A stretch of 64,000 nucleotides of DNA from Perna viridis (lineage: Eukaryota), in contig CM074519.1 in NCBI GenBank assembly GCA_037379345.1, positions 35,552,103-35,616,102 of the forward strand, given 5' to 3'. Shown here piece by piece: positions 1-64,000 of this stretch (its first letter is position 1; every line of letters starts with the position of its first letter). Below the pieces are notes generated by a model. The model was not told the origin of the DNA and did no database searches. It worked only from the letters and a program-made list of their open reading frames with translations. The translations under genes were made by a program, and so were the position numbers.

Positions 1-349
1 AGAACATTTTATATTTTTGAACCATTGATAGATAAACTTACTTGTTTATACAGAGGAATGGGTTGTTATCGATAAAAACAACGGATATGGTTAAAAGCAA
101 CAAATGCACTAGCGTACAACCTAAATACAAAATAGTAAAAACTTTCCGAGATCATCAAAAGGTCTTCATCAAATGTAAACTGAAAGGCCAAGTCAACCAA
201 AGTAATAAAGTACAAAGTAACAGAACTGTGACAATTCTTCAAAATTAAACCATTTAAGTATTTTTTTTTTTTTATGTGTACTGGTTCATTTATATTCGCA
301 TTAGAAATCAGACTATTAACTGTCCTCTATCGATGTTTGATGAGGCACG

Positions 350-582
350 CCAGTACTATGTAGTTGCCAGGGATTGTACTACAGAACTATGTACTAGCCA
401 GGGATTTTATTATAAAACTATGTACCTTCCAGGGATTCTACTCCAATACTATGCACTATCCAGGAATTTTACTCCAGTTCAATGTACTAGCCATGGATTT
501 TACCATGTACTACCCAGGGATTTAACTATAATCTATCTATAGTCTAGGGATTTTACTATAGTATCACGTAGTAGCTAGGGAT
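350..582. repeat. 31-bp minisatellite, left half (interrupted by LTR element)
   Basis: Degenerate tandem units of consensus ~GGATTTTACTATAGTATCATGTACTAGCCAG; the array resumes at 5581. Confidence 0.8.
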
Positions 583-932
583 TATGATAGGACAGTACTT
601 AGACATTATTGATTAAATTGTTATTGTTGAGAAAGGGAGAAATGTATAATGACTTTAAGAATTAATATTGTCTATGTTAACTATAAATTGAATTATATGC
701 ATGTACGGGTAAACTGAACACATAGAATGTTTATGTCCAGATTCACATTGATTGATGGATGTGTCTTATATAATTGAATGGTATATACTCTTGAACATGT
801 TGTATATTCGGAGAGCTCGCTTTTACTCTTGAACATGTTGTATATTCGGAGAGCTCGCTTTTACTCTTGTAATAAACGTTACAGTCAGTTTTACTTGTAT
901 TGGCATTATAGTCCGTACCAGACTCTACCACA
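583..932 (+). repeat. 5' LTR (350 bp)
   Basis: TATGATAG...CTACCACA; differs from the 3' LTR by 3 substitutions, a 38-bp tandem duplication and a 3-bp indel; AATAAA near the 3' end. Confidence 0.92.
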
Positions 933-938
933 TATTTT

Positions 939-950
939 TGGTGCCGTGAC
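939..950 (+). promoter_or_regulatory. Primer-binding site complementary to the tRNA-His 3' end
   Basis: TGGTGCCGTGAC 6 nt after the 5' LTR; reverse complement of the eukaryotic tRNA-His 3' end (...GUCACGGCACCA). Confidence 0.8.
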
Positions 951-1008
951 AGTTCGTTCCTGAAAGTAAGTCGCTTTAATGTTATGTTAGATTTTGTTTT
1001 CTGTTAAA

Positions 1009-1437
1009 ATGACTGACCAAAATCCATTTGATGGATTGACTGCACAATTAGCTAGCTTGTCGAATTCAGTAAATGTACAAACAGTTCTTAATCGTATAAA
1101 GCCGTTTCACGGGGATTCAAAAGATTTTAAAGGTTGGGTTAAGGCTCTAGTAAAAACATGCTTTTATCAGTAAGATACCTGCTCATGAAATTAAACAATT
1201 ACCTTTATTGACTTCTAAGGGTTATGTGACACTATTCAACGCAGGCTTACAAATTTTCCAGAAGAAACTTGGGAAGGGTTAAAGAAAGAATTGAATGCTC
1301 GTTTTGGTACTGTTTCTGATGCTCATTTCGCGGGAAAATGCTAAGAAGAATTAGGCAAAAACATGATGAAAATGTTCAATTGTTTTCTGAAAGGTTATTA
1401 AATTTGGCTGAGGAAGCATATGGTGATCTGCCGGGGT
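1009..1437 (+). pseudogene. gag: gag remnant (frameshifted)
   Basis: MTDQNPFDG...IKPFHGDSKDFKGWVKAL; then WEGLKKELNARFG and RQKHDENVQLFSERLLNLA (Gag major-homology-like Q-x3-E-x-V-x2-F-x2-RL) in shifted frames. Confidence 0.75.
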
Positions 1438-1853
1438 AAATTTTAATGTCAATAGTGAATGTATTGTAGTCTTGTTATTGTCTACACACTCTATTATGGT
1501 TGACTCAAACCAAGAATGGACTAAGATTCATGCTTCAAACAAATCATGTACCAAATGTATTGCGGATAGCAAAATAGTGATGTAAGGTTACATTTTTTAT
1601 GTTCCTGATAAGTTGTGAAGTTATGGAACTAGAGAACGTTGGTTCATAGGTCAAATATATTCTGGTCGAATTTTTTTTTCTTCTGATGGTTTCTATAAAA
1701 TCTTATTCTTTCTTTGATATTCCCTAGATGCAAATTACTATTCACAGAACTTCACTTCTATTTTTATTGGTGCATACGTAATTTTATCTTTTGTTATTGT
1801 CAGCTCCACTTGTCGTCGCGTATATATACGAGAAGTGGTCGGTTGTATTTAAT

Positions 1854-2066
1854 TAGTTGAAGCTGTTAGGTATATGGCTTCATGGCAGTTCGCACGCGTT
1901 GTTGTTTTGTTTAGTTGAAGCTGTTATAAATATGGCTTTATGGCAGTTCGCCGTTATTATTTTAATTATAGTTGAAGCCGTTAGATATATGGCTCTATGG
2001 CAGTTTGCCGTTATTGTTTTATTTAGTTGAGGCCGTTAGATATATGGCTGTATGGCAGTTGGCCGT
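1854..2066. repeat. Four ~55-58-bp tandem repeats inside the LTR element
   Basis: TAGTTGAAGCYGTTAGATATATGGCTNTATGGCAGTT-like units starting near 1854, 1912, 1969, 2024. Confidence 0.85.
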
Positions 2067-3401
2067 CATTTGAACGTAGATAACGTTGTTTTTATGTTAC
2101 TAGAGGTAACATTGTTGACCGAGGCAATAAGAAAACACAGAAATGCGTATGTAGTAATGAGGTGCATCGTGAAGTTTTGTGAAAAGTTATTAAGTTGCTC
2201 TGAATTGGTTATCCAGATTTTGATTTGGTCTTTCTTACCATTTAGTTATTTTAGGCATGTTTAGCATGCTTAAAATTTGCCGAGCATACTTTATTTAAAA
2301 TGCATAGGAGTATTTTTGAAGTTGATTTTTTTTTATTATTAATTGTTAGGGATTATTTATTTATTGGCGGCCGTATTTTCGGATTATTGAAACGTGTCAA
2401 AATTAAGCAGGAATCTATTTCAGAGACTGATATAGATACTGATACGGAAGTAAGTACTACAACTTTCTCTGGTGAATATTCTTCTCCTTTTTCTTCGTCA
2501 CATTCTGATAAGTACATTTCAGAATCCTTTTCGTCGAAGGTCGGCTCAACGGGGTCAACCAAGCTTTCAAGCAGTGGAGAAGAGATGTCAGTGGATGCTG
2601 TTACTCCAAAACATATACTTCCATCAAGTAAGAAACGTCGTCATCATAAATCCTCAAAAGGGAATGAGACATTGAAATTGACTTTAGATGTCTTTGCAGT
2701 GCGTTTAATTCATTGTCATATTGATCTTGTAGTTCTGTTGTCAATTTTATTGTGCACAGTTAAAGTTTTTATTAGTTGTCTGTGAAGACTTCAGATGTTC
2801 ACAAAAGTTTTCATTGTAGTCATATCATTCATTTTCATTGTTTTATTTTTTATTCATTTTGAAATCATTAGTTATGGTTCCTTAAAGTTAACTAGAAAAT
2901 GGTGGTTCAGATCGAATTCAGTTGAACTCGTTGGCATTTAGCCAAAGCTTTAGAAATTATCTGTTGTTATAACATTGGGTTCGTGTATCTTTTATGCAGA
3001 TGGCACTTTACTTCAGAGAACCTGAAAATGAACCAGCCATGTTAACATTTCTGGCAGTATTTCTGATTCGCTTACAGAAGAGCCGTTTTGCCAAAGCTGG
3101 CGCCTTGATTATCAGTTTCTGGAACGCTATTCCAGACATTACCCTATCGGGACAATACAGCATGTACATAATAAATATGATTGTGTTCTTTTTTGTTCAT
3201 TCATTTTGGTGTCTAATTGCGCTTATGTTAGTAAACTATTTGTGTTTTAATCCACTTAATTGCTTTCATGAGTGCGCCTTCGTTTATTGTGGTTTTAGTT
3301 GTTGAGTTGTATGTTTTGTATCTCATATGCATATTTCGTTGTTTCATTTTAGTTGTTTTGTTGTATAATTTGACTAGTTTTTGGTCTTATTTATTGTAGA
3401 G

Positions 3402-4667
3402 ATGGTGATGTTCCATCTGGTTGTCTTCTTGCTCTTTGGTTCTTTGGTCGTAATCAGAAAACGATTACACATGTAGTGTCCAAAAGTATATATCTATTTT
3501 AAATATGACGAGAAATGAGGTTTTACAAAATAGGGAACTTCAAAATTCATTGGTCACTAAGTATAGGGGACTCATAGGTCGTCTGCAATACAGAATTTTA
3601 GAGAAACATATTGTAAGTGTAGAAAATTTCAAGATACTTAATTTTCATTGGCGGGGTTTAGTTAAAGGAATTCTTTTCATGATTGAAAAAGATTTATTTT
3701 ATTTAGTTAATTTGAAACTTCAGTTATAAATTAGAAAGTAATGCATTGGCAGTTAATAAGGCTAGAATGCAATATGTGCTATTGACTCCAGATGAATTAA
3801 AACAGTGTTCCAATCCATTAGTCGGGTTTTGCAACATTAAAAGTACAGTCTACCCAGTAAACTTAAGTAAGACCTGCATTATTACTCTTTTCATGAAAAA
3901 CAAAAATATCTTAAATACACGTTGCCAAACACTCATTTATCCTAATTCGATTCTACCTATGGCAGATCACATACGGGAAGGTCTTTGGGTAATAGCCACA
4001 CAAAAAAGATTAAGATTCTCTGTAGTTTGTCGTCATCCTTCCCAATTATCTACCACAAGAATAAATTCACCTATTGGATTAGTAAAGTTACAAACTTCTT
4101 GTTCTGCTAATAGTGATTCTTTAACACTTTTACCATATTACAAGGGTGAAGACCGTTTTCAAAGTTCACAACCATTAAAAAGATTAATTAAATTTACAAT
4201 GTGTCTGAACTCACAATATAGCAACCTTTTCATTTAGCTTTGCCTAATTTTACTATTGATGAGCTTCCTAACACATTGCAACATATGGAAACCATACCAA
4301 TGGCGAATTTAATCAGTCAGTTAAAAGATTTACGAACAATTGATACTAGTTTTCAAATTCCAAATTGGGTATATGCAGGTATCTCATTGTTAATTGCCAT
4401 ATTAATTGGGGTTGGGATATTTTGTTATTGTCGACAAGCTAGTTTTTGCAGACACTCATGGTTGGCCAGAAAAAAAACAGAGGCAAGTCTGACGAACATG
4501 AAGCAGCTGAAAATGGGTATAAACTGGTGCCAACGGTGTCGACAGATGCTGACTCTGGGTTACGTGATAGACGATACTGCGATTTAGACGAAAACAAAGT
4601 AGAGCAAGTGGTCATGAAAACAGTCTCCAAGATATATGCTTCGTTCGAGGCGCAACACAATCGTTAA
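3402..4667 (+). pseudogene. env: env remnant, baculovirus-F / errantivirus-type fusion glycoprotein-like (broken)
   Basis: Hydrophobic leader MVMFHLVVFLLFGSL at 3402; heptad-like NQKTITHVVSKSISILNMTRNEVLQNR; Cys-rich block ELKQC..FCNIK..YPVNLSKTCIITLF..RC..WVIA..C..C; TM WVYAGISLLIAILIGVGIFCYC; split over ORFs 3505-3729, 3746-4237, 4240-4587/4667; lies just before the PPT. Confidence 0.7.
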
Positions 4668-4734
4668 CAACCCTTAGCAGTGATGGCAATTAGACGGGAG
4701 ACGAATATGGCAAACTCACACAAACTGACGATAC

Positions 4735-4992
4735 TATATAATCATGGAACAGAGGAGAGCTGGAGCGCAGTTGACGGTGTTAGTGAATTTGTAGCTGTAT
4801 AACCGAACTTTTACAATTTGTAGCTGTATAATTGAACTTTTACAATTTATAGCTGTATAATCGAACTTTTACATTATATAATCATGGAGCAGAGGAGAGC
4901 TGGAGCGCAGTTGACGGTGTTGGTGACTTTGTAACTGTATAAACAAACGTTTACATTATATAATCATGGAGCAGAGGAGAGCTGGAGCGCGG
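4735..4992. repeat. Repeats in the 3' non-coding region of the LTR element
   Basis: TATATAATCATGGARCAGAGGAGAGCTGGAGCGC x3, interspersed with TTTGTAGCTGTATAA..GAACTTTTACA units. Confidence 0.8.
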
Positions 4993-5256
4993 ATGATTTG
5001 TAAATAAACTCATTGATCTGTTATTATATTATTGAACTTGATGTTCCAGTAACGATAGGATCGGAACTTCATTTATCATCTTCATGCGGTGTCGGACATT
5101 GACATTCATCTTTATATAACTTTTCTCATTTGATGTGTGCCTAGTTTCTGGTGACGGATTTTTCAAAATAAACTTGACTGTACACAATTAGCGAGTACTA
5201 CCACAATGCAAGTACGGTTACCGGCCTGTTTGCTGAATTATCTACGATAATTCTTT

Positions 5257-5271
5257 GAGAAAGGGAGGAAA
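5257..5271 (+). promoter_or_regulatory. Polypurine tract
   Basis: GAGAAAGGGAGGAAA abutting the 3' LTR. Confidence 0.85.
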
Positions 5272-5580
5272 TATGGTAGGACAGTACTTAGACATTATTG
5301 ATTAAATTGTTATTGTTGAGAAAGGGAGGAATGTATAATGACTTTAAGAATTAATATTGTCTATGTTAACTATAAATTGAATTATATGCATGTACGGGTA
5401 AACTGGACACATAGAATGTTTATGTCCAGATTCACATTGATTGATGGATGTGTCTTATATAATTGAATGGTATATACTCTTGAACATGTATATTCGGAGA
5501 GCTCGCTTTTACTCTTGTAATAAACGTTACAGTCAGTTTTACTTGTATTGGCATTATAGTCCGTACCAGACTCTACCACA
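5272..5580 (+). repeat. 3' LTR (309 bp)
   Basis: TATGGTAG...CTACCACA (imperfect terminal inverted repeat), followed by TSD GGAT. Confidence 0.92.
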
Positions 5581-5765
5581 GGATTTAACTACAGTACCGT
5601 GTACTATCTAGGGATTTTACTATAGTATCACGTACTAGCCAGGGATTTAACTACAGTACTATGTACTGTCTAGGGATTATACTATAGTATTATGTACTAG
5701 CCAGGGATTTAACTACTGTATACTGTCTATGGATTTCACTATAGTATCATGTACTAGCCATGGAT
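5581..5765. repeat. 31-bp minisatellite, right half (alternating A/B units)
   Basis: GGATTTAACTACAGTAC..TGTACT.TCTAG alternates with GGATT.TACTATAGTAT..YGTACTAGCCAG. Confidence 0.8.
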
Positions 5766-5778
5766 TGAAACCGGGACA

Positions 5779-7241
5779 ACGTTACGCACGCTATTGCGGC
5801 TGTGTTGAAAAAAAAACACACCAAAACTATAAATAACTTTTGTAAACACTCAAAAATGTGAATATGTGAAAGCTGTATACTGTTGGAATCAGTACAAATT
5901 ATTAGTTCTGAATATTTGTCCTAATTCTTTACAATCAATTAAACTTGTCAAAAACCCGCAAAAACGTCAAAATTTCACCTGTCAAGTGTAACGAACTATA
6001 GACTCAAAAAAGCTAAAATCGTGAATTGCGCTATTGCAGAGGGTACGAAATTCGCCAAATTTTGCATGGAAGAATAACTGTATATATGTTCTTTTTTAGA
6101 TAATTATCGAAATTGCGTTAATTTTAAGCAAAAAATATATTCAATGCAGAAATGAGGGTTGATAAATTGTCAGATTTCTAAAAGTGTTCAGTAATAAAAT
6201 TCTGTTATTAAAGTAAGAACTTATTTACACAATATTCTTTTCCGATTAATATTTCCTATAAATGTACATACTTTCAGCAATTCAACGTCGGCATTTGATA
6301 AAACTTTCAGTACAAAGAAAGAAGTTACGGCTTTTTGAAAATGTCTCAAGAAATGTCAGATGTCAATATTTTACGGGTTCGTTGAGAATGGGGAAATAAA
6401 ACGGAAATATTTTCCGCTTATGATAACAAAAACCAGACACTTATACTCGTCTCTTTAATTACAAGTATCGAACATGCAACTGAAAGAGACAAAAAATCGA
6501 AATCGATCGTATAAAAAAAGACTAAAAGTATCTATATTTGTCTTATTAATAAACGAAAGAATATGAATAAAACAAAAAAGAACTGAATAATTTTTTAGTT
6601 TAGACACAAGGAATTCGACCGGAGCGGAATGACCGAAACGCAACATAGAGTTGACAGAAGTTTAAAATAAGTATAGAAAAGCAGAATGCTTATAGATAGA
6701 ATGAAAGTAGAAAAGGGGGTCATAAACATTTTTTATTTAGGAAAGCGCAAATGAGCAAATGAAATGAAAATCAATGAGCGGCTATATACATTTTGTAAGG
6801 CTGTTGATGAAAACCCGATTTTGTGATGAATAGAAAGCTCTTTCAATCGAAATACTAAGTTGTAGAAGGTCCAAATTCTGCTATTGGTACATGTAACTAA
6901 ATCATACATGTATATCAAAATGCACAATTTAACTTACCTTAGGAGAAACTTGCAGTATCCCCTCTCTAGACAGAGTGCGCATATATGTTGCGGTTGCATT
7001 CGACGCTGCTGTGCTCATGCATGTGCTAATTGAAGTTACTGATATTACTGATAATCAATTTAATTATTTTTTTTCGATTTTCTAAGAAATGTTCAAGATG
7101 TTTCAATTGCTACCAATCAAATAATTATTGTATGTATTGCTATACTGTACACGTGTTTCAGTAAGCAAGCAAGAAACGAAAAGTGTTGCCAAACGTCGAT
7201 TTCCGACGTTACCGCATATGATGCAATAGCGTGCGTAACGT
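5779..7241. mobile_element. Putative non-autonomous DNA transposon bounded by a 19-bp inverted repeat
   Basis: ACGTTACGCACGCTATTGC (5779-5797) and its exact reverse complement (7223-7241); no ORF; no TSD found. Confidence 0.5.
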
Positions 7242-31319: not shown

Positions 31320-32490
31320 GCAATCAAGGAGACCAAAGTTTAAGCGGAAATCAATAGATAATTCTTCAAAGAAAAAGACCAGACAGGGACAATAAACTCA
31401 TAAAATAGAACCAGGGTTATAGCGGTAATCGAAAAAATGTAATCCAGGGACAAAGACCAGACATGGAAATCAGACATACACAACAAAGAACACAAAGTAA
31501 CTAAAATCATACATACAAAGTAACAAAAGCAAATGAGCAACTCGGACTCCACGTAAAACTGGGAGCATGGACCAAGTGCACCGGTAAGGTAAGCGTCCTC
31601 TGCTTTTCTAGAAACACCCGCCGAGTTGCTCACAGAAAGGCAAGTCCGGGGTAGACAAACGAGGAAAGGAAAACTATGACAGATGAATAAATCAGTTTTC
31701 ATGGTACAGATAAACGATCCACGAGTTCATGATGATGACATCAACATAACCCTGTTCCAGAAGCCTATTTGTTAGAGTTCTAGCGCGATACAACAAGTCT
31801 CTGTAGTTTCGGCAAGCTCTGGCATAACGTACATACACAGGTGCTGAAGGGATATTGCCACAGATGAAAGGAAAGTTGACAATACTGAATGAAAAGTCAT
31901 TACGTTTGGTCAATAATTTTCCTTTACCATCGATTTCTAAGTGTAGGTCAAGATATGAGGCTGACTTCACAGTGTCTTTAGTATCCTTTATCTCGAGTTC
32001 TTTGGGGTAGATGCGATGTATCAAATTCACGAAATTGGGATTATTTAAAGATAATACGTCATTTATATAGCGGAAACTGAGATTAAAGGATCTAGCTAAA
32101 CGATGTTCTTTCTTATGGATCAGATCAGCTATAAAATCAGCCTCATAAGAGTGAAGGAATAGGTCAACAAATAACGGAGCACAATTTGTTCCCATTTGAA
32201 TGCTGACCGTCTGTTGAAAAACACGTCCACCACACTGGACAAATATGTTGTCGATTAAAAATTCCAGCATTTTGTAAACATCTTCCTCTGTATATTTGGA
32301 AGATGATTTGGAATTATTTCTTACAAAGTATGAGGAATCTCTTCCAAGAACTATATATTTGTATCTAGGTGTACCATCTTTTTGGAAAAACAACGATGCA
32401 AAATGTTTTTAAGTCGGGATTTTAACTGAGTAGGGGAAAAGAAGTATACAGTGTTGAAAAATCATAGGTTTTAATGCTATCATATTCAGA
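31320..32490 (-). mobile_element. Penelope-like element, longest fragment (degenerate RT)
   Basis: YDFSTLYT, FQQTVSIQMGTNCAP, RYINDVL (YxDD decayed), SASYLDL; frameshifts; partial second copy of the 3' tail at ~31320-31390. Confidence 0.85.
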
Positions 32491-62000: not shown

Positions 62001-63444
62001 AACTTTTCAATTTTTGTTCCAACAATATCTTTTCCATTAAGCAAATTTGCTTCAACAGATATTTTTAAAAGTTTGTTTGTATCTCTGTCTTCTTCCCTAT
62101 GTCTGTATAGTCTATTATCAACACTGACTCTTGTTGGATTCTGTCTTTGCGGCCCATTATTACTGTCAATGGTTCTATCTGTCTGCCATTGTCTTGACGA
62201 ATCTTGATTATTGTCAATTGTGTCTTGTGTTTGCCAACCTGCAGACGGTTCTTTTTTGCCATTTTCTGCTTGCAATAAACTTGAAGAAGGCGATTTCATG
62301 TCGGTTGCTTCCCTTGTGGGCCATTGTCTAGAGGGGGTCAATTCATCGTTGACCCTGTCTGCAGTAGGCCCTCGCCTCTTTGGTTGTATATGTGGTTGTG
62401 TTGGTTTGCGTGTAGTTGTCGTAGTTTTCATTGTTGTTGATTTAGTTGTTGTTATAGTTGTTGCTATAGTTGTTTTTGTTGGCAATGCATTGAATTTAGG
62501 ACTAATTTCAGAAGCAGGCATACCAACATGATCGGCACTGGCTGGTATTTTAGCTGTAGATGCTATTATAAGACAAAATGTGATTTATAAACACTTACAA
62601 GTAGAGAAGATCGATATTTTAACAAGCGGATTTATTTTGCATCAGTTAATCGGGATACAACACATGCACATTTTTCAGTTATTTTTTTCTAATAAGGTAT
62701 AGGAAATCATTACTAGCTAATAGATTTTTGTTATATTAAATAAAAAATGCTTGCAGTGTTCATCCATTTTTAAACCATATTAAGATTTCAAGAAAAAGCG
62801 GCACAAAATCATATATTTGGATAGCAATGTATATTGTTTCATTATATCAAATAATACAGTGTAATTCATGATATTTTTTTTTAATTTTTCACCTGAAGTT
62901 GTTAGTTTCCTTACTGACTGTACAAGCTTATCCACAGCAAGGTCGATTGGCTCAATATAAAAATACTCATTTGGTTTGAAAGCCATCGATCTCAGCTGTT
63001 TCTCATCAACGAGTCTCCCAACTCCAACGCAGAATAGGTGTATTCCAACTGACCTCAGTGCCTCACTTTCGCCCCTACTAGCATCAGGATATTTGGATCG
63101 TCCATCAGTTACAATGACACCAATCTGCGCCGTTTTTTGGCGTCCACTTGAATAAAACATCCGTTCTAATTTGTTGATTCCCAAGTCTATTCTACTACCA
63201 TCCTGTGGCTGTTGTAACGTATGTAAGGTTTTAATTAAACTATTTTTGTTTGTGGATTGTGCTAAATCAACTGTATCACCTATGTCCGAACTAACAACAA
63301 TGACACCCACACGAACCCTCTCCGGGCCAATGTCTACCTGTGTGATGAAGCGTTCGACAAGAGTTTTTTGTTCTACGAATTCCCCGTCTGAGATGCTATC
63401 AGAACCATCCAACAAAAATACTATGTCTGCCTGGTCAATATAAT
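52985..63444 (-). CDS. Pif: Pif/BMSP-like protein C (5'-incomplete, ~918 aa visible): VWA + Thr/Pro linker + His micro-exon + 3 chitin-binding-like domains + LamG
   Basis: Minus-strand exons 63444-62893, 62562-61513, 61135-61103, 59319-59128, 58739-58536, 56533-56381, 56094-55733, 54486-54396, 53544-53465, 53023-52985; all GT-AG; in frame to TAG. VWA-ChtBD-LamG is the Pif/BMSP architecture; symbol denotes family, orthology not established. Confidence 0.85.
53465..53544 (-). CDS. Gene C exon: LamG part 3
   Basis: GTIEERPSALILGACDYFGGYIGMMDD; 80 nt. Confidence 0.85.
54396..54486 (-). CDS. Gene C exon: LamG part 2
   Basis: STSWKTLSFVYDGRHLIGNIDG; 91 nt. Confidence 0.85.
55088..55678 (-). mobile_element. 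Penelope-like 3' fragment in gene C intron
   Basis: GKGKLLTKLYNKRDDFSF..NIPSAPA..RYARACRN plus the shared tail. Confidence 0.8.
55733..56094 (-). CDS. Gene C exon: LamG part 1
   Basis: SCRPELILDFNDGFSDKSGNN..ARFDGSGKIRLWRFS..LLSNCF; 362 nt. Confidence 0.88.
56381..56533 (-). CDS. Gene C exon: chitin-binding-like domain 3
   Basis: ASCRMTPFETNERFYFEEIPGLGMMTRSCPRGSQYNPGLCTCDRSEEVRKN; 153 nt. Confidence 0.85.
58536..58739 (-). CDS. Gene C exon: chitin-binding domain 2
   Basis: DPCFDFTVRSYDHKGNCRAHWSCRNGLSQAKCCPDGFAFNEEKQECVPDPGCHDWC; 204 nt. Confidence 0.9.
59128..59319 (-). CDS. Gene C exon: chitin-binding domain 1
   Basis: DLCYGSQYVDGVGYNADPKSCNEFIQCF..RCPFRMFWDQRLLLC..SCWR; 192 nt. Confidence 0.9.
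61103..61135 (-). CDS. Gene C 33-nt micro-exon (HRSNHAGGHHA)
   Basis: CCTTGCAG|33 nt|GTAAGT, phase 1-1. Confidence 0.65.
61513..62562 (-). CDS. Gene C exon: Thr/Pro/Gln-rich mucin-like linker (350 codons)
   Basis: Poly-Thr tracts at both ends; ends GAG C|GTAAGT; an alternative in-frame acceptor is possible at 62553. Confidence 0.85.
62893..63444 (-). CDS. Gene C exon: von Willebrand factor A domain
   Basis: ADIVFLLDGSDSI (MIDAS DxSxS)..VRVGVI..IVTDGRS..LFCVGVG; 552 nt, phase 1-1. Confidence 0.93.
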
Positions 63445-64000
63445 CTAAATGAACATTTTTTTGACAATTCAATTCGTGATTAATATATTTTTGCAGTAAT
63501 GTGGATTTTAGCAATGCAATTTGAATGATATGACATGAGTTGAGTTTGTTTTACTTCTCTTGTTTATATCTAAAAATTACGTCTTTATATTTCTTCATTT
63601 CTTCGTCAATAAAAAGGAATATAAGTGGAACAAATGTCCGTTTTATCATTAACATGATAAATTAGACAAAATGTCATTACTGGTGAATGTAGATCAATCA
63701 TACGAAATCAATTAACGCGAATACCATTATAATAAATGAATTGTGGAACAAAATATTGAGCAATTTGATTAAATTTCTGATATGACATGACAAGGAAATG
63801 TTAACCGTATCATACATTACAATAATGATTCGGCAATGGAATATATGTTCAAAATTAGTACCCATGACCGATTTTATTTTAATTCTGTGTTATTATTCTT
63901 TTCTATATATTATAAACAGGTATACTTGTCCCATCTAAATTATAAATAAAATATCAGCAAATGAGTAGGAATATTAGTGTGTTTGTTTGATCATTTAAAC

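Follow-up and report, generated by a model that had tools for sequence, protein, structure and literature searches.

A young, defective Ty3/gypsy element with an F-type env remnant in the bivalve Perna viridis, likely mobilised by pol-bearing relatives

How does a retroelement without a reverse transcriptase (RT) or integrase of its own give rise to a young and still polymorphic insertion? The question is raised by a 4,998-bp LTR element at positions 583-5580 of a 64,000-nucleotide stretch of Perna viridis DNA, hereafter the window. Our reading, to which we give a probability of roughly 0.85, is that it belongs, as a non-autonomous copy, to a family of mollusc Ty3/gypsy elements whose env is F-type, that it has kept its LTRs, primer site and purine tract and has no RT or integrase, and that it was likely mobilised by the Gag and Pol of pol-bearing relatives. 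Its features are as follows.

579-582, plus strand: target-site duplication, left copy (4 bp, in a 31-bp minisatellite); an empty allele has a single copy
583-932, plus strand: 5' LTR, 350 bp, with an internal 38-nt tandem duplication at 786-861
939-950, plus strand: primer-binding site, fully complementary to the tRNA-His(GUG) 12-mer tabulated for mollusc errantiviruses
1009-1442, plus strand: N-terminal part of gag, truncated at 1442, with frame breaks near 1151, 1225 and 1334
1443-2360, plus strand: replacement segment of about 920 nt, apparently non-coding, with four 57-nt repeats at 1839-2070
2365-2716, plus strand: pol C-terminal remnant, with a short stretch from behind the integrase core and then a low-complexity tail
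2973-3154, plus strand: what is left of an extra reading frame, short and diverged (tblastn E 1.9e-5 and 0.025)
3402-4667, plus strand: F-type env remnant with a predicted signal peptide and a predicted transmembrane segment near 4366-4431
4668-5256, plus strand: 3' untranslated region containing repeats of 29 nt and 140 nt
5257-5271, plus strand: polypurine tract adjoining the 3' LTR
5272-5580, plus strand: 3' LTR, 309 bp
5581-5584, plus strand: target-site duplication, right copy

The two LTRs align with 306 matches and 3 substitutions over 309 sites, each substitution being an A in the 5' LTR and a G in the 3' LTR, plus one 41-nt gap spanning the 38-nt tandem duplication present in the 5' LTR. 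The divergence is 0.97%, with a Poisson 95% range of 0.2-2.8%. An earlier sequence-only reading of the window had described the LTRs as nearly identical, which the alignment confirms, and had left the gap unstated. The intact target duplication, primer site and purine tract that it reported were all located: GGAT flanks the element on both sides within the minisatellite, the primer site starts 6 nt past the 5' LTR end and the purine tract abuts the 3' LTR. The cis signals of the family (LTRs with a target duplication, tRNA primer site, purine tract) are present in this copy. The primer would be tRNA-His, an assignment drawn entirely from the published 12-mer, since a pattern search for the 3' end of the host tRNA-His gave no match.

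Uninterrupted gag, pol and env frames are absent from the window copy, which is a defective derivative and not an intact errantivirus. As the earlier reading had noted, gag and env are both broken, the longest open stretches being 60 aa in the truncated gag and 173 aa in env. Sister copies carry a gag that matches Retrotrans_gag (weakly) and zf-CCHC, and in them the position of the replacement segment is taken by the 3' half of gag and by pol; the segment itself is confined to copies without RT or integrase. Searches of positions 1-6000 gave no match to protease, RT or RNase H (best E 1.0) and no integrase core. The element had been called pol-less, which holds for the enzymes (RT, RNase H, integrase core) but not for the pol C-terminal tail, which is retained as 9 aa at 2365-2391 and 111 aa at 2384-2716 with 84% identity to a sister copy.

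Only one of the nine window pieces scanned against Pfam passed a curated cut-off: the env piece at 3716-4234, which matches Baculo_F (E 6.9e-6). The env of a sister copy has 78 homologues, all of the named ones from molluscs, and an alignment-based structure model of it (pLDDT 73.5) has the F proteins of RSV and hMPV as its best PDB matches (E 2e-6), as well as baculovirus F and chuvirus glycoproteins in BFVD. Folding from the single sequence reached a pLDDT of only 35 and was unusable, and a sequence-profile search of the PDB with the env alignment had no match at E < 0.001, the weaker ones being coiled-coil and transmembrane noise. By itself a sister env frame of 613 aa had no Pfam match, whereas the env of another copy did. 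The family env and a Mytilus homologue both have a basic cleavage motif with a hydrophobic stretch after it, and the family env combines a predicted furin site, fusion peptide and transmembrane segment with the Baculo_F match and the RSV/hMPV F fold. By these sequence and model criteria the window env is F-type, as had been proposed. It has lost about 420 nt near 3438, a first deletion that takes away what is predicted to encode the F2 subunit, furin site and fusion peptide, and about 300 nt near 3725 in a second; both deletions are common to other copies, and the window env has several small breaks besides. We also considered a domesticated cellular gene and rejected it: the env piece has 59 matches in the genome, and its frame is broken and lies within an LTR element.

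The shared breakpoints lead to the family. In sister copies such as L001 and L018, gag, pol and env lie in that order between LTRs. The existence of pol-bearing relatives in this genome was borne out by L001, whose frames contain protease, RT, RNase H and integrase in Ty3/gypsy order by Pfam and which is 92-97% identical to the window element wherever both retain sequence. Among 37 family-related sequences classified, in 17 the replacement segment is present and both RT and integrase are absent, 17 others are pol-bearing and 3 have neither segment nor pol. The junction between gag and the replacement lies at the identical base in the window and in seven other copies that keep both sides (one is shifted by 1 base), and the junction between the replacement and the pol tail is common to the window and 11 other copies. 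Separate 4-bp target duplications flank seven of the nine copies whose two LTRs could be strictly delimited. All three lesions, the pol replacement and both env deletions, occur together in nine copies at separate loci. The same breakpoints thus recur in separate insertions that keep the cis signals, as in a non-autonomous subfamily. Because the three lesions share their breakpoints across separate insertions, repeated copying of a defective template is supported.

Cross-tabulating pol against env in the 23 copies classifiable for both traits gave all six combinations. Pol-bearing copies have the env 5' region in full (3), with the first deletion (4) or with both (3), so that the fusion region is lost in 7 of 10; among pol-less copies the corresponding counts are 2 (one a duplicated event), 2 and 9. 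These combinations point to recombination among family copies. Region trees alone are no proof of it because they are poorly resolved, with strong support for 1 and 3 of 20 branches.

In six public runs, a contig was taken to bridge a junction when at least 31 letters lay on each side. One run of the six contains the empty site: an 888-nt contig of X3 joins window positions 1-583 to 5581-5816 with a 5-letter overlap. The insertion is therefore polymorphic, the site being empty in at least one public run, and can serve as a simple marker. Among the pieces listed for X1, X15 and X8 none bridges either junction. A left-junction contig of X16 reaches 27 letters into the LTR and an empty-site contig of X19 has 25 letters of left flank; both fall below the 31-letter rule and are hints only. 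An assembly error was rejected, as reads of other runs contain the window junction and gag sequence. The empty allele and the low LTR divergence, at 0.97% the lowest of nine strictly delimited pairs (the others span 1.6-11.9%), uphold the proposal of a young insertion.

It had further been proposed that an already decayed template was copied. This stands for the pol replacement and the two large env deletions but not for the small frameshifts, seven of which are private or nearly so, breaks being common to 0-3 of the 20-24 covering copies. Most of them likely arose at or after this insertion. Some may predate it, because seven private breaks in about 1.7 kb are many for 0.5% per LTR, and because the env end branch is long (0.015, three times the 0.005 of gag).

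Since RT and integrase are absent, we infer mobilisation by helper proteins. The pol-less RNA would have been packaged, reverse-transcribed and integrated using the Gag and Pol of pol-bearing relatives, with the enzymes presumably supplied in trans. Template switching between co-packaged RNAs may be the source of the mosaics and of the six pol-by-env combinations, and env-deleted lineages would have been copied independently of env, inside the cell. Since Gag and Pol suffice for the copying of such elements, the helper need not be enveloped. The first suggestion, that the element implies an autonomous enveloped relative, is not supported: 7 of the 10 classifiable pol-bearing copies have lost the fusion region, and the frames around family RT matches reach 719 aa at most in the 120 of 1,229 candidates scored, none of which is a helper with an unbroken pol. 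In the family copies fetched, the longest open pol stretch is 687 aa, against about 1,400 codons for a whole pol. Because no unbroken family pol was found, the helper would have been lost, have decayed or be absent from the assembly.

Alternatively, some intact and enveloped relative from the family, present in this genome, could have very recently copied a fully decayed element, small frameshifts included. The polymorphic site and the LTR divergence, lowest of the nine pairs, would fit, as would a pol-bearing copy that retains the whole env 5' region and whose partial LTR pair differs at a similarly low 2 of 278 sites. We nonetheless consider this unlikely, given how few copies share the small breaks, that no copy scored or fetched has an unbroken pol, and that env-deleted outnumber env-complete pol-bearing copies by 7 to 3. 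The proteins might also have come from a distant, still intact env-bearing Ty3/gypsy family in the genome. VL30 rides on unrelated retroviruses and offers a precedent for such parasitism across families. Reading frames for pol (1,308-1,356 aa) and env (816 aa) are indeed open at several loci. One such locus, chosen for closer study, is flanked by a 4-bp target duplication and has LTRs that are 99.9% identical to each other and begin much as those of our element do. Its identity to our family is only 34% in protease-RT and 22% in env, no part of the window element has a DNA-level match there, the primer-site sequence differs, and the mosaics tie the pol-less copies to pol-bearing copies of their own family, all of which make such a donor very improbable.

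The mosaics themselves could reflect ectopic recombination or gene conversion after insertion, in which case the likeness of the LTRs would record conversion and not youth. Rearranged copies do exist, with inverted LTR ends and with an inverted duplicate pair (L005/L006), and LTR tandem-repeat number can differ between the two LTRs of one copy. But the empty allele shows youth whatever the LTR similarity, and one-off conversions do not readily give the same three lesions in nine copies at separate loci, so we hold this explanation to be rather improbable. Mobilisation by the Gag and Pol of pol-bearing relatives remains our preferred reading.

The bivalve character of the genome, suggested from the letters alone, is supported by an UNC-93-like exon neighbouring the element, whose closest named matches are in Mytilus (66%) and then oysters. 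Steamer of Mya arenaria, a bivalve Ty3/gypsy-type LTR element, is known as a gag-pol element and is not known to carry env. The surprise initially expressed at an F-type env gypsy element in a bivalve is misplaced, as such elements, some of them His-primed, are already published: Chary & Hayashi (eLife 2026, PMC13524379) tabulate 46 elements from molluscs, every one ENV_F and 10 of them His-primed, including the tRNA-His-primed 'ancient errantiviruses' Csin_4, Ffra_1, Hhip_3, Mqua_3 and Tcro_3. Enveloped Ty3/gypsy elements in bivalves are thus known and not a new kind of system. Our family, which we liken to theirs through tabulated features only, is likely of the same kind: it shares the gag-pol-env order, F-type env, bivalve host, multiple copies and the identical His_GUG 12-mer primer site a few bases from the LTR. 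Unlike the elements of that survey, which retained intact copies only, the window copy is pol-less and env-deleted and the family consists of defective mosaics. A literature search, with many journals outside its coverage, found no defective, recombining errantivirus derivatives in molluscs, and the value of the present family lies in documenting such derivatives, still polymorphic, which the survey leaves out.

They have parallels in Drosophila rover and in cattle D-type ERVs. According to Senti et al. (EMBO J 2025, PMC12992720), env-complete and env-inactivated rover variants coexist with nested env lesions, recombination between them is ascribed to co-packaging, and the env-less variants are active retroelements. 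Coexisting env variants, nested env lesions and probable recombination between variants recur in our family, which differs in the additional pol-less lineage layered on top, in its bivalve host and in being known from sequence. In cattle ERVK[2-1-LTR], defective, trans-complemented D-type copies dominate new insertions and are proposed to drive the demise of the family, according to Tang et al. (Nat Commun 2024, PMC10924933). Numerous defective copies and a polymorphic insertion are common to both; the cattle elements, however, are members of a true retrovirus clade whose helpers have been demonstrated, whereas our family is Ty3/gypsy and the assembly yielded no helper for it.

A further lead is the extra frame, which copies whose env 5' region is complete carry between pol and env. 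It has no Pfam match, and the searched passages of PMC13524379 make no mention of it. Pairwise dN/dS between copies is mostly near 1 (range 0.28-1.43, from small counts and with internally shifted stretches in the env comparisons); for the extra frame it is 0.8-1.1, again from small counts, and with such counts and values it is neutral on function. We entertain, as a doubtful scenario, a declining enveloped family in which recombination spread env loss through pol-bearing and pol-less lineages alike, a pol-less lineage with the 920-nt segment has been inserting so recently that it is still polymorphic, no unbroken helper remains in the assembly, and the env-complete ancestor had an accessory orphan gene encoding about 265 aa; such a gene between pol and env, if real, would make that ancestor a 'complex' mollusc errantivirus. 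One homology search with the extra frame returned nothing and another a single match, 67% over 66 aa, which is possibly Perna viridis' own copy.

The 4,998-bp element at positions 583-5580 of the window belongs to a kind already published; this copy is non-autonomous, and its insertion is young and polymorphic. The observation made in the sequence-only reading was confirmed, and its interpretation is partly supported. The two LTRs are:

583-932, 5' LTR
5272-5580, 3' LTR

As had been claimed (three substitutions over about 309 bp), the pair is nearly identical: 306 of 309 aligned sites match and the other three are A/G substitutions, while a single 41-nt gap falls on a tandem duplication of 38 nt. 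The divergence of 0.97% (Poisson 95% range 0.2-2.8%), which is not converted to years for lack of a calibrated rate, is the lowest among the nine family copies with strictly delimited LTRs; two partial LTR pairs of the family are equally low (1/197 and 2/278). The target duplication, primer site and purine tract had been described as intact, and they are: GGAT lies on either side of the element, inside a 31-bp minisatellite, the primer site lies 6 nt past the 5' LTR, and the purine tract, 15 nt long, adjoins the 3' LTR. Seven of the nine strictly delimited copies have a 4-bp target duplication.

Insertion polymorphism, proposed as a check, was found when reads were compared from 6 of the 20 listed runs. 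An 888-nt contig from run X3 joins window 1-583 directly to 5581-5816 with a 5-letter overlap; this is the unoccupied locus, where the target occurs once, and the insertion is therefore not fixed. A contig from run X19, of a different study, begins at 5581 and is preceded there by 25 letters identical to 554-578, which hints that the same site is empty in that run too. In run X16, a contig spanning 261-610 with zero differences hints at a filled site, and this run is possibly the assembly's own source. The minisatellite interrupted by the insertion (320-582 and 5581-5766) has a slightly different repeat arrangement in X3.

The identification of the env as F-type held up. In a Pfam scan, 3716-4234 matched Baculo_F (E 6.9e-6), the only one of nine window pieces over the cut-off, and this piece has 59 matches in the genome. 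A sister copy, L005, has a 613-aa open env frame with 78 homologues, many containing PF12259; those that are named are molluscan (Mytilus, Haliotis, Argopecten, Lottia and Mercenaria). Its structural model, folded with 53 homologues (pLDDT 73.5), matched the F proteins of RSV and hMPV in the PDB (best E 2e-6, with TM-scores of only ~0.3 by query length); its BFVD matches were chuvirus glycoproteins and baculovirus F. Sister copies whose env 5' region is complete have a signal-peptide-like start. They share with a Mytilus homologue a basic cleavage motif and a hydrophobic stretch, which we name furin site and fusion peptide following the F-type env description in PMC13524379. In the window copy, a ~420-nt deletion near 3438 removes this whole 5' region, and a second deletion takes ~300 nt near 3725. 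Membrane fusion by the window env would not be expected.

The element had also been called pol-less. It does lack the protease, RT, RNase H and integrase core, but retains a pol tail at 2365-2716 as its sole pol remainder. A sister, L001, carries all four domains in Ty3/gypsy order. In the window, an unrelated ~920-nt segment (1443-2360) takes the place that the gag 3' half and pol occupy in pol-bearing copies. Its first part occurs at 16 genomic places, each of them within a fetched copy that lacks both RT and integrase. Three shorter relatives (L037, L038 and L039; ~3.5 kb), with diverged and longer LTRs and no detectable coding matches, carry the same segment; they are possibly an older non-coding offshoot and its source.

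An LTR search of the genome gave 258 candidates, 40 of which were scored. Sixty-two stretches were fetched, and 36 of these plus the window were classified, leaving aside unrelated inserts, lone LTRs, fragments, the window flank and a last batch of 12. Pol is present in 17 of the 37, the replacement segment in 17 and neither in 3. Both pol and env could be scored in 23:

Copies by pol and env state (n = 23)
With pol: env 5' region complete, 3; first deletion only, 4; both deletions, 3
Without pol: env 5' region complete, 2; first deletion only, 2; both deletions, 9

The fusion region is absent in 18 of the 23. The two pol-less, env-complete copies are an inverted duplicate pair, counted as one event: L005 and L006 (G000:C6, ~10 kb apart) are near-identical and in opposite orientation, each with its 3' LTR inverted, which reflects either rearrangement at this locus or an error of assembly. 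Breakpoints agree from copy to copy and, together with these counts, indicate that the three large lesions have been copied many times. All six combinations are present, which a single tree without recombination cannot yield; they thus point to recombination, to which the region trees are too weak to add any support. Template switching in co-packaged RNA is the favoured route to these mosaics, ahead of chromosomal conversion.

The reading that an already-decayed element was copied therefore stands for the large pol and env lesions, but not for most of the small frameshifts. Of the window copy's seven small breaks, three lie in gag and four in env. They are length-matched in only 0-3 of 20-24 covering copies, and the gag end branch (0.005; closest gag relative 1.4% different) agrees with half of the LTR divergence, so most likely date from the window insertion or its immediate donor. 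Their high number and the longer env end branch (0.015) suggest that part of them may be older.

An autonomous enveloped relative had been taken as implied. The most likely helper is a pol-bearing copy of the same family, since decayed or missing from the assembly, but it need not have had env, and none of the fetched family copies has an unbroken pol. Among 120 RT candidates scored of 1,229, the family's open frames reach at most 719 aa, whereas frames of 1,300-1,460 aa are numerous in other gypsy families. In a distant env-bearing Ty3/gypsy family, several loci (on contigs C1, C7, C12, C15 and others) have pol and Baculo_F env frames that are long and open, and the one copy inspected has almost identical LTRs. 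This family shares only 34% protease-RT identity with the window family, uses a different primer site and has no DNA match to the window element.

In copies that keep the whole env 5' region, pol and env are separated by a further open frame of some 257-272 aa:

L016:3208-4023, minus strand, extra frame
L005:3990-4760, minus strand, extra frame
Window 2973-3154, diverged remnant of the extra frame

This frame has 17 genomic matches at about nine loci and no Pfam family. One homologue search gave no match and a second a single short one, with no convincing outside homologue. Pairwise dN/dS, from few changes, is near 1 and says little about function. The frame may be an accessory gene.

Env-bearing Ty3/gypsy elements have been reported animal-wide (Chary and Hayashi, PMC13524379); the available part of that survey tabulates 46 elements from molluscs (36 from bivalves and 10 from gastropods), each with ENV_F, and 10 of them primed by tRNA-His(GUG). 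The window primer site (939-950) is the exact complement of the tRNA-His(GUG) 12-mer tabulated there. Unlike the non-autonomous window copy, the elements of that survey are all intact, as no others were retained in it. Our literature search found no paper on non-autonomous mollusc errantiviruses. Steamer, another bivalve element of Ty3/gypsy type, is not known to carry env. Related behaviour is described, in the parts available, for Drosophila rover, with env variants side by side and recombination (PMC12992720), and for cattle ERVK D-type, where defective copies dominate new insertions (PMC10924933).

At 11789-63550 the window holds a gene cluster with long low-complexity exons. It includes:

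25111-25524, cysteine-rich chitin-binding-like exon
43163 and 55697, laminin-G-like exons
62780-63550, VWA exon (Pfam VWA match)

The cluster resembles genes for shell-matrix proteins. A 238-aa frame at 31692-32408 (minus strand), without a Pfam match, resembles a fragment of a Penelope-type reverse transcriptase. Near the element lies an UNC-93-like exon, closest among named proteins to Mytilus, which makes the host a bivalve and probably a mussel. The gene is:

L050:5671-9693 (a stretch fetched from the same genome), same strand as the element, UNC-93-like gene ending ~0.8 kb upstream of it
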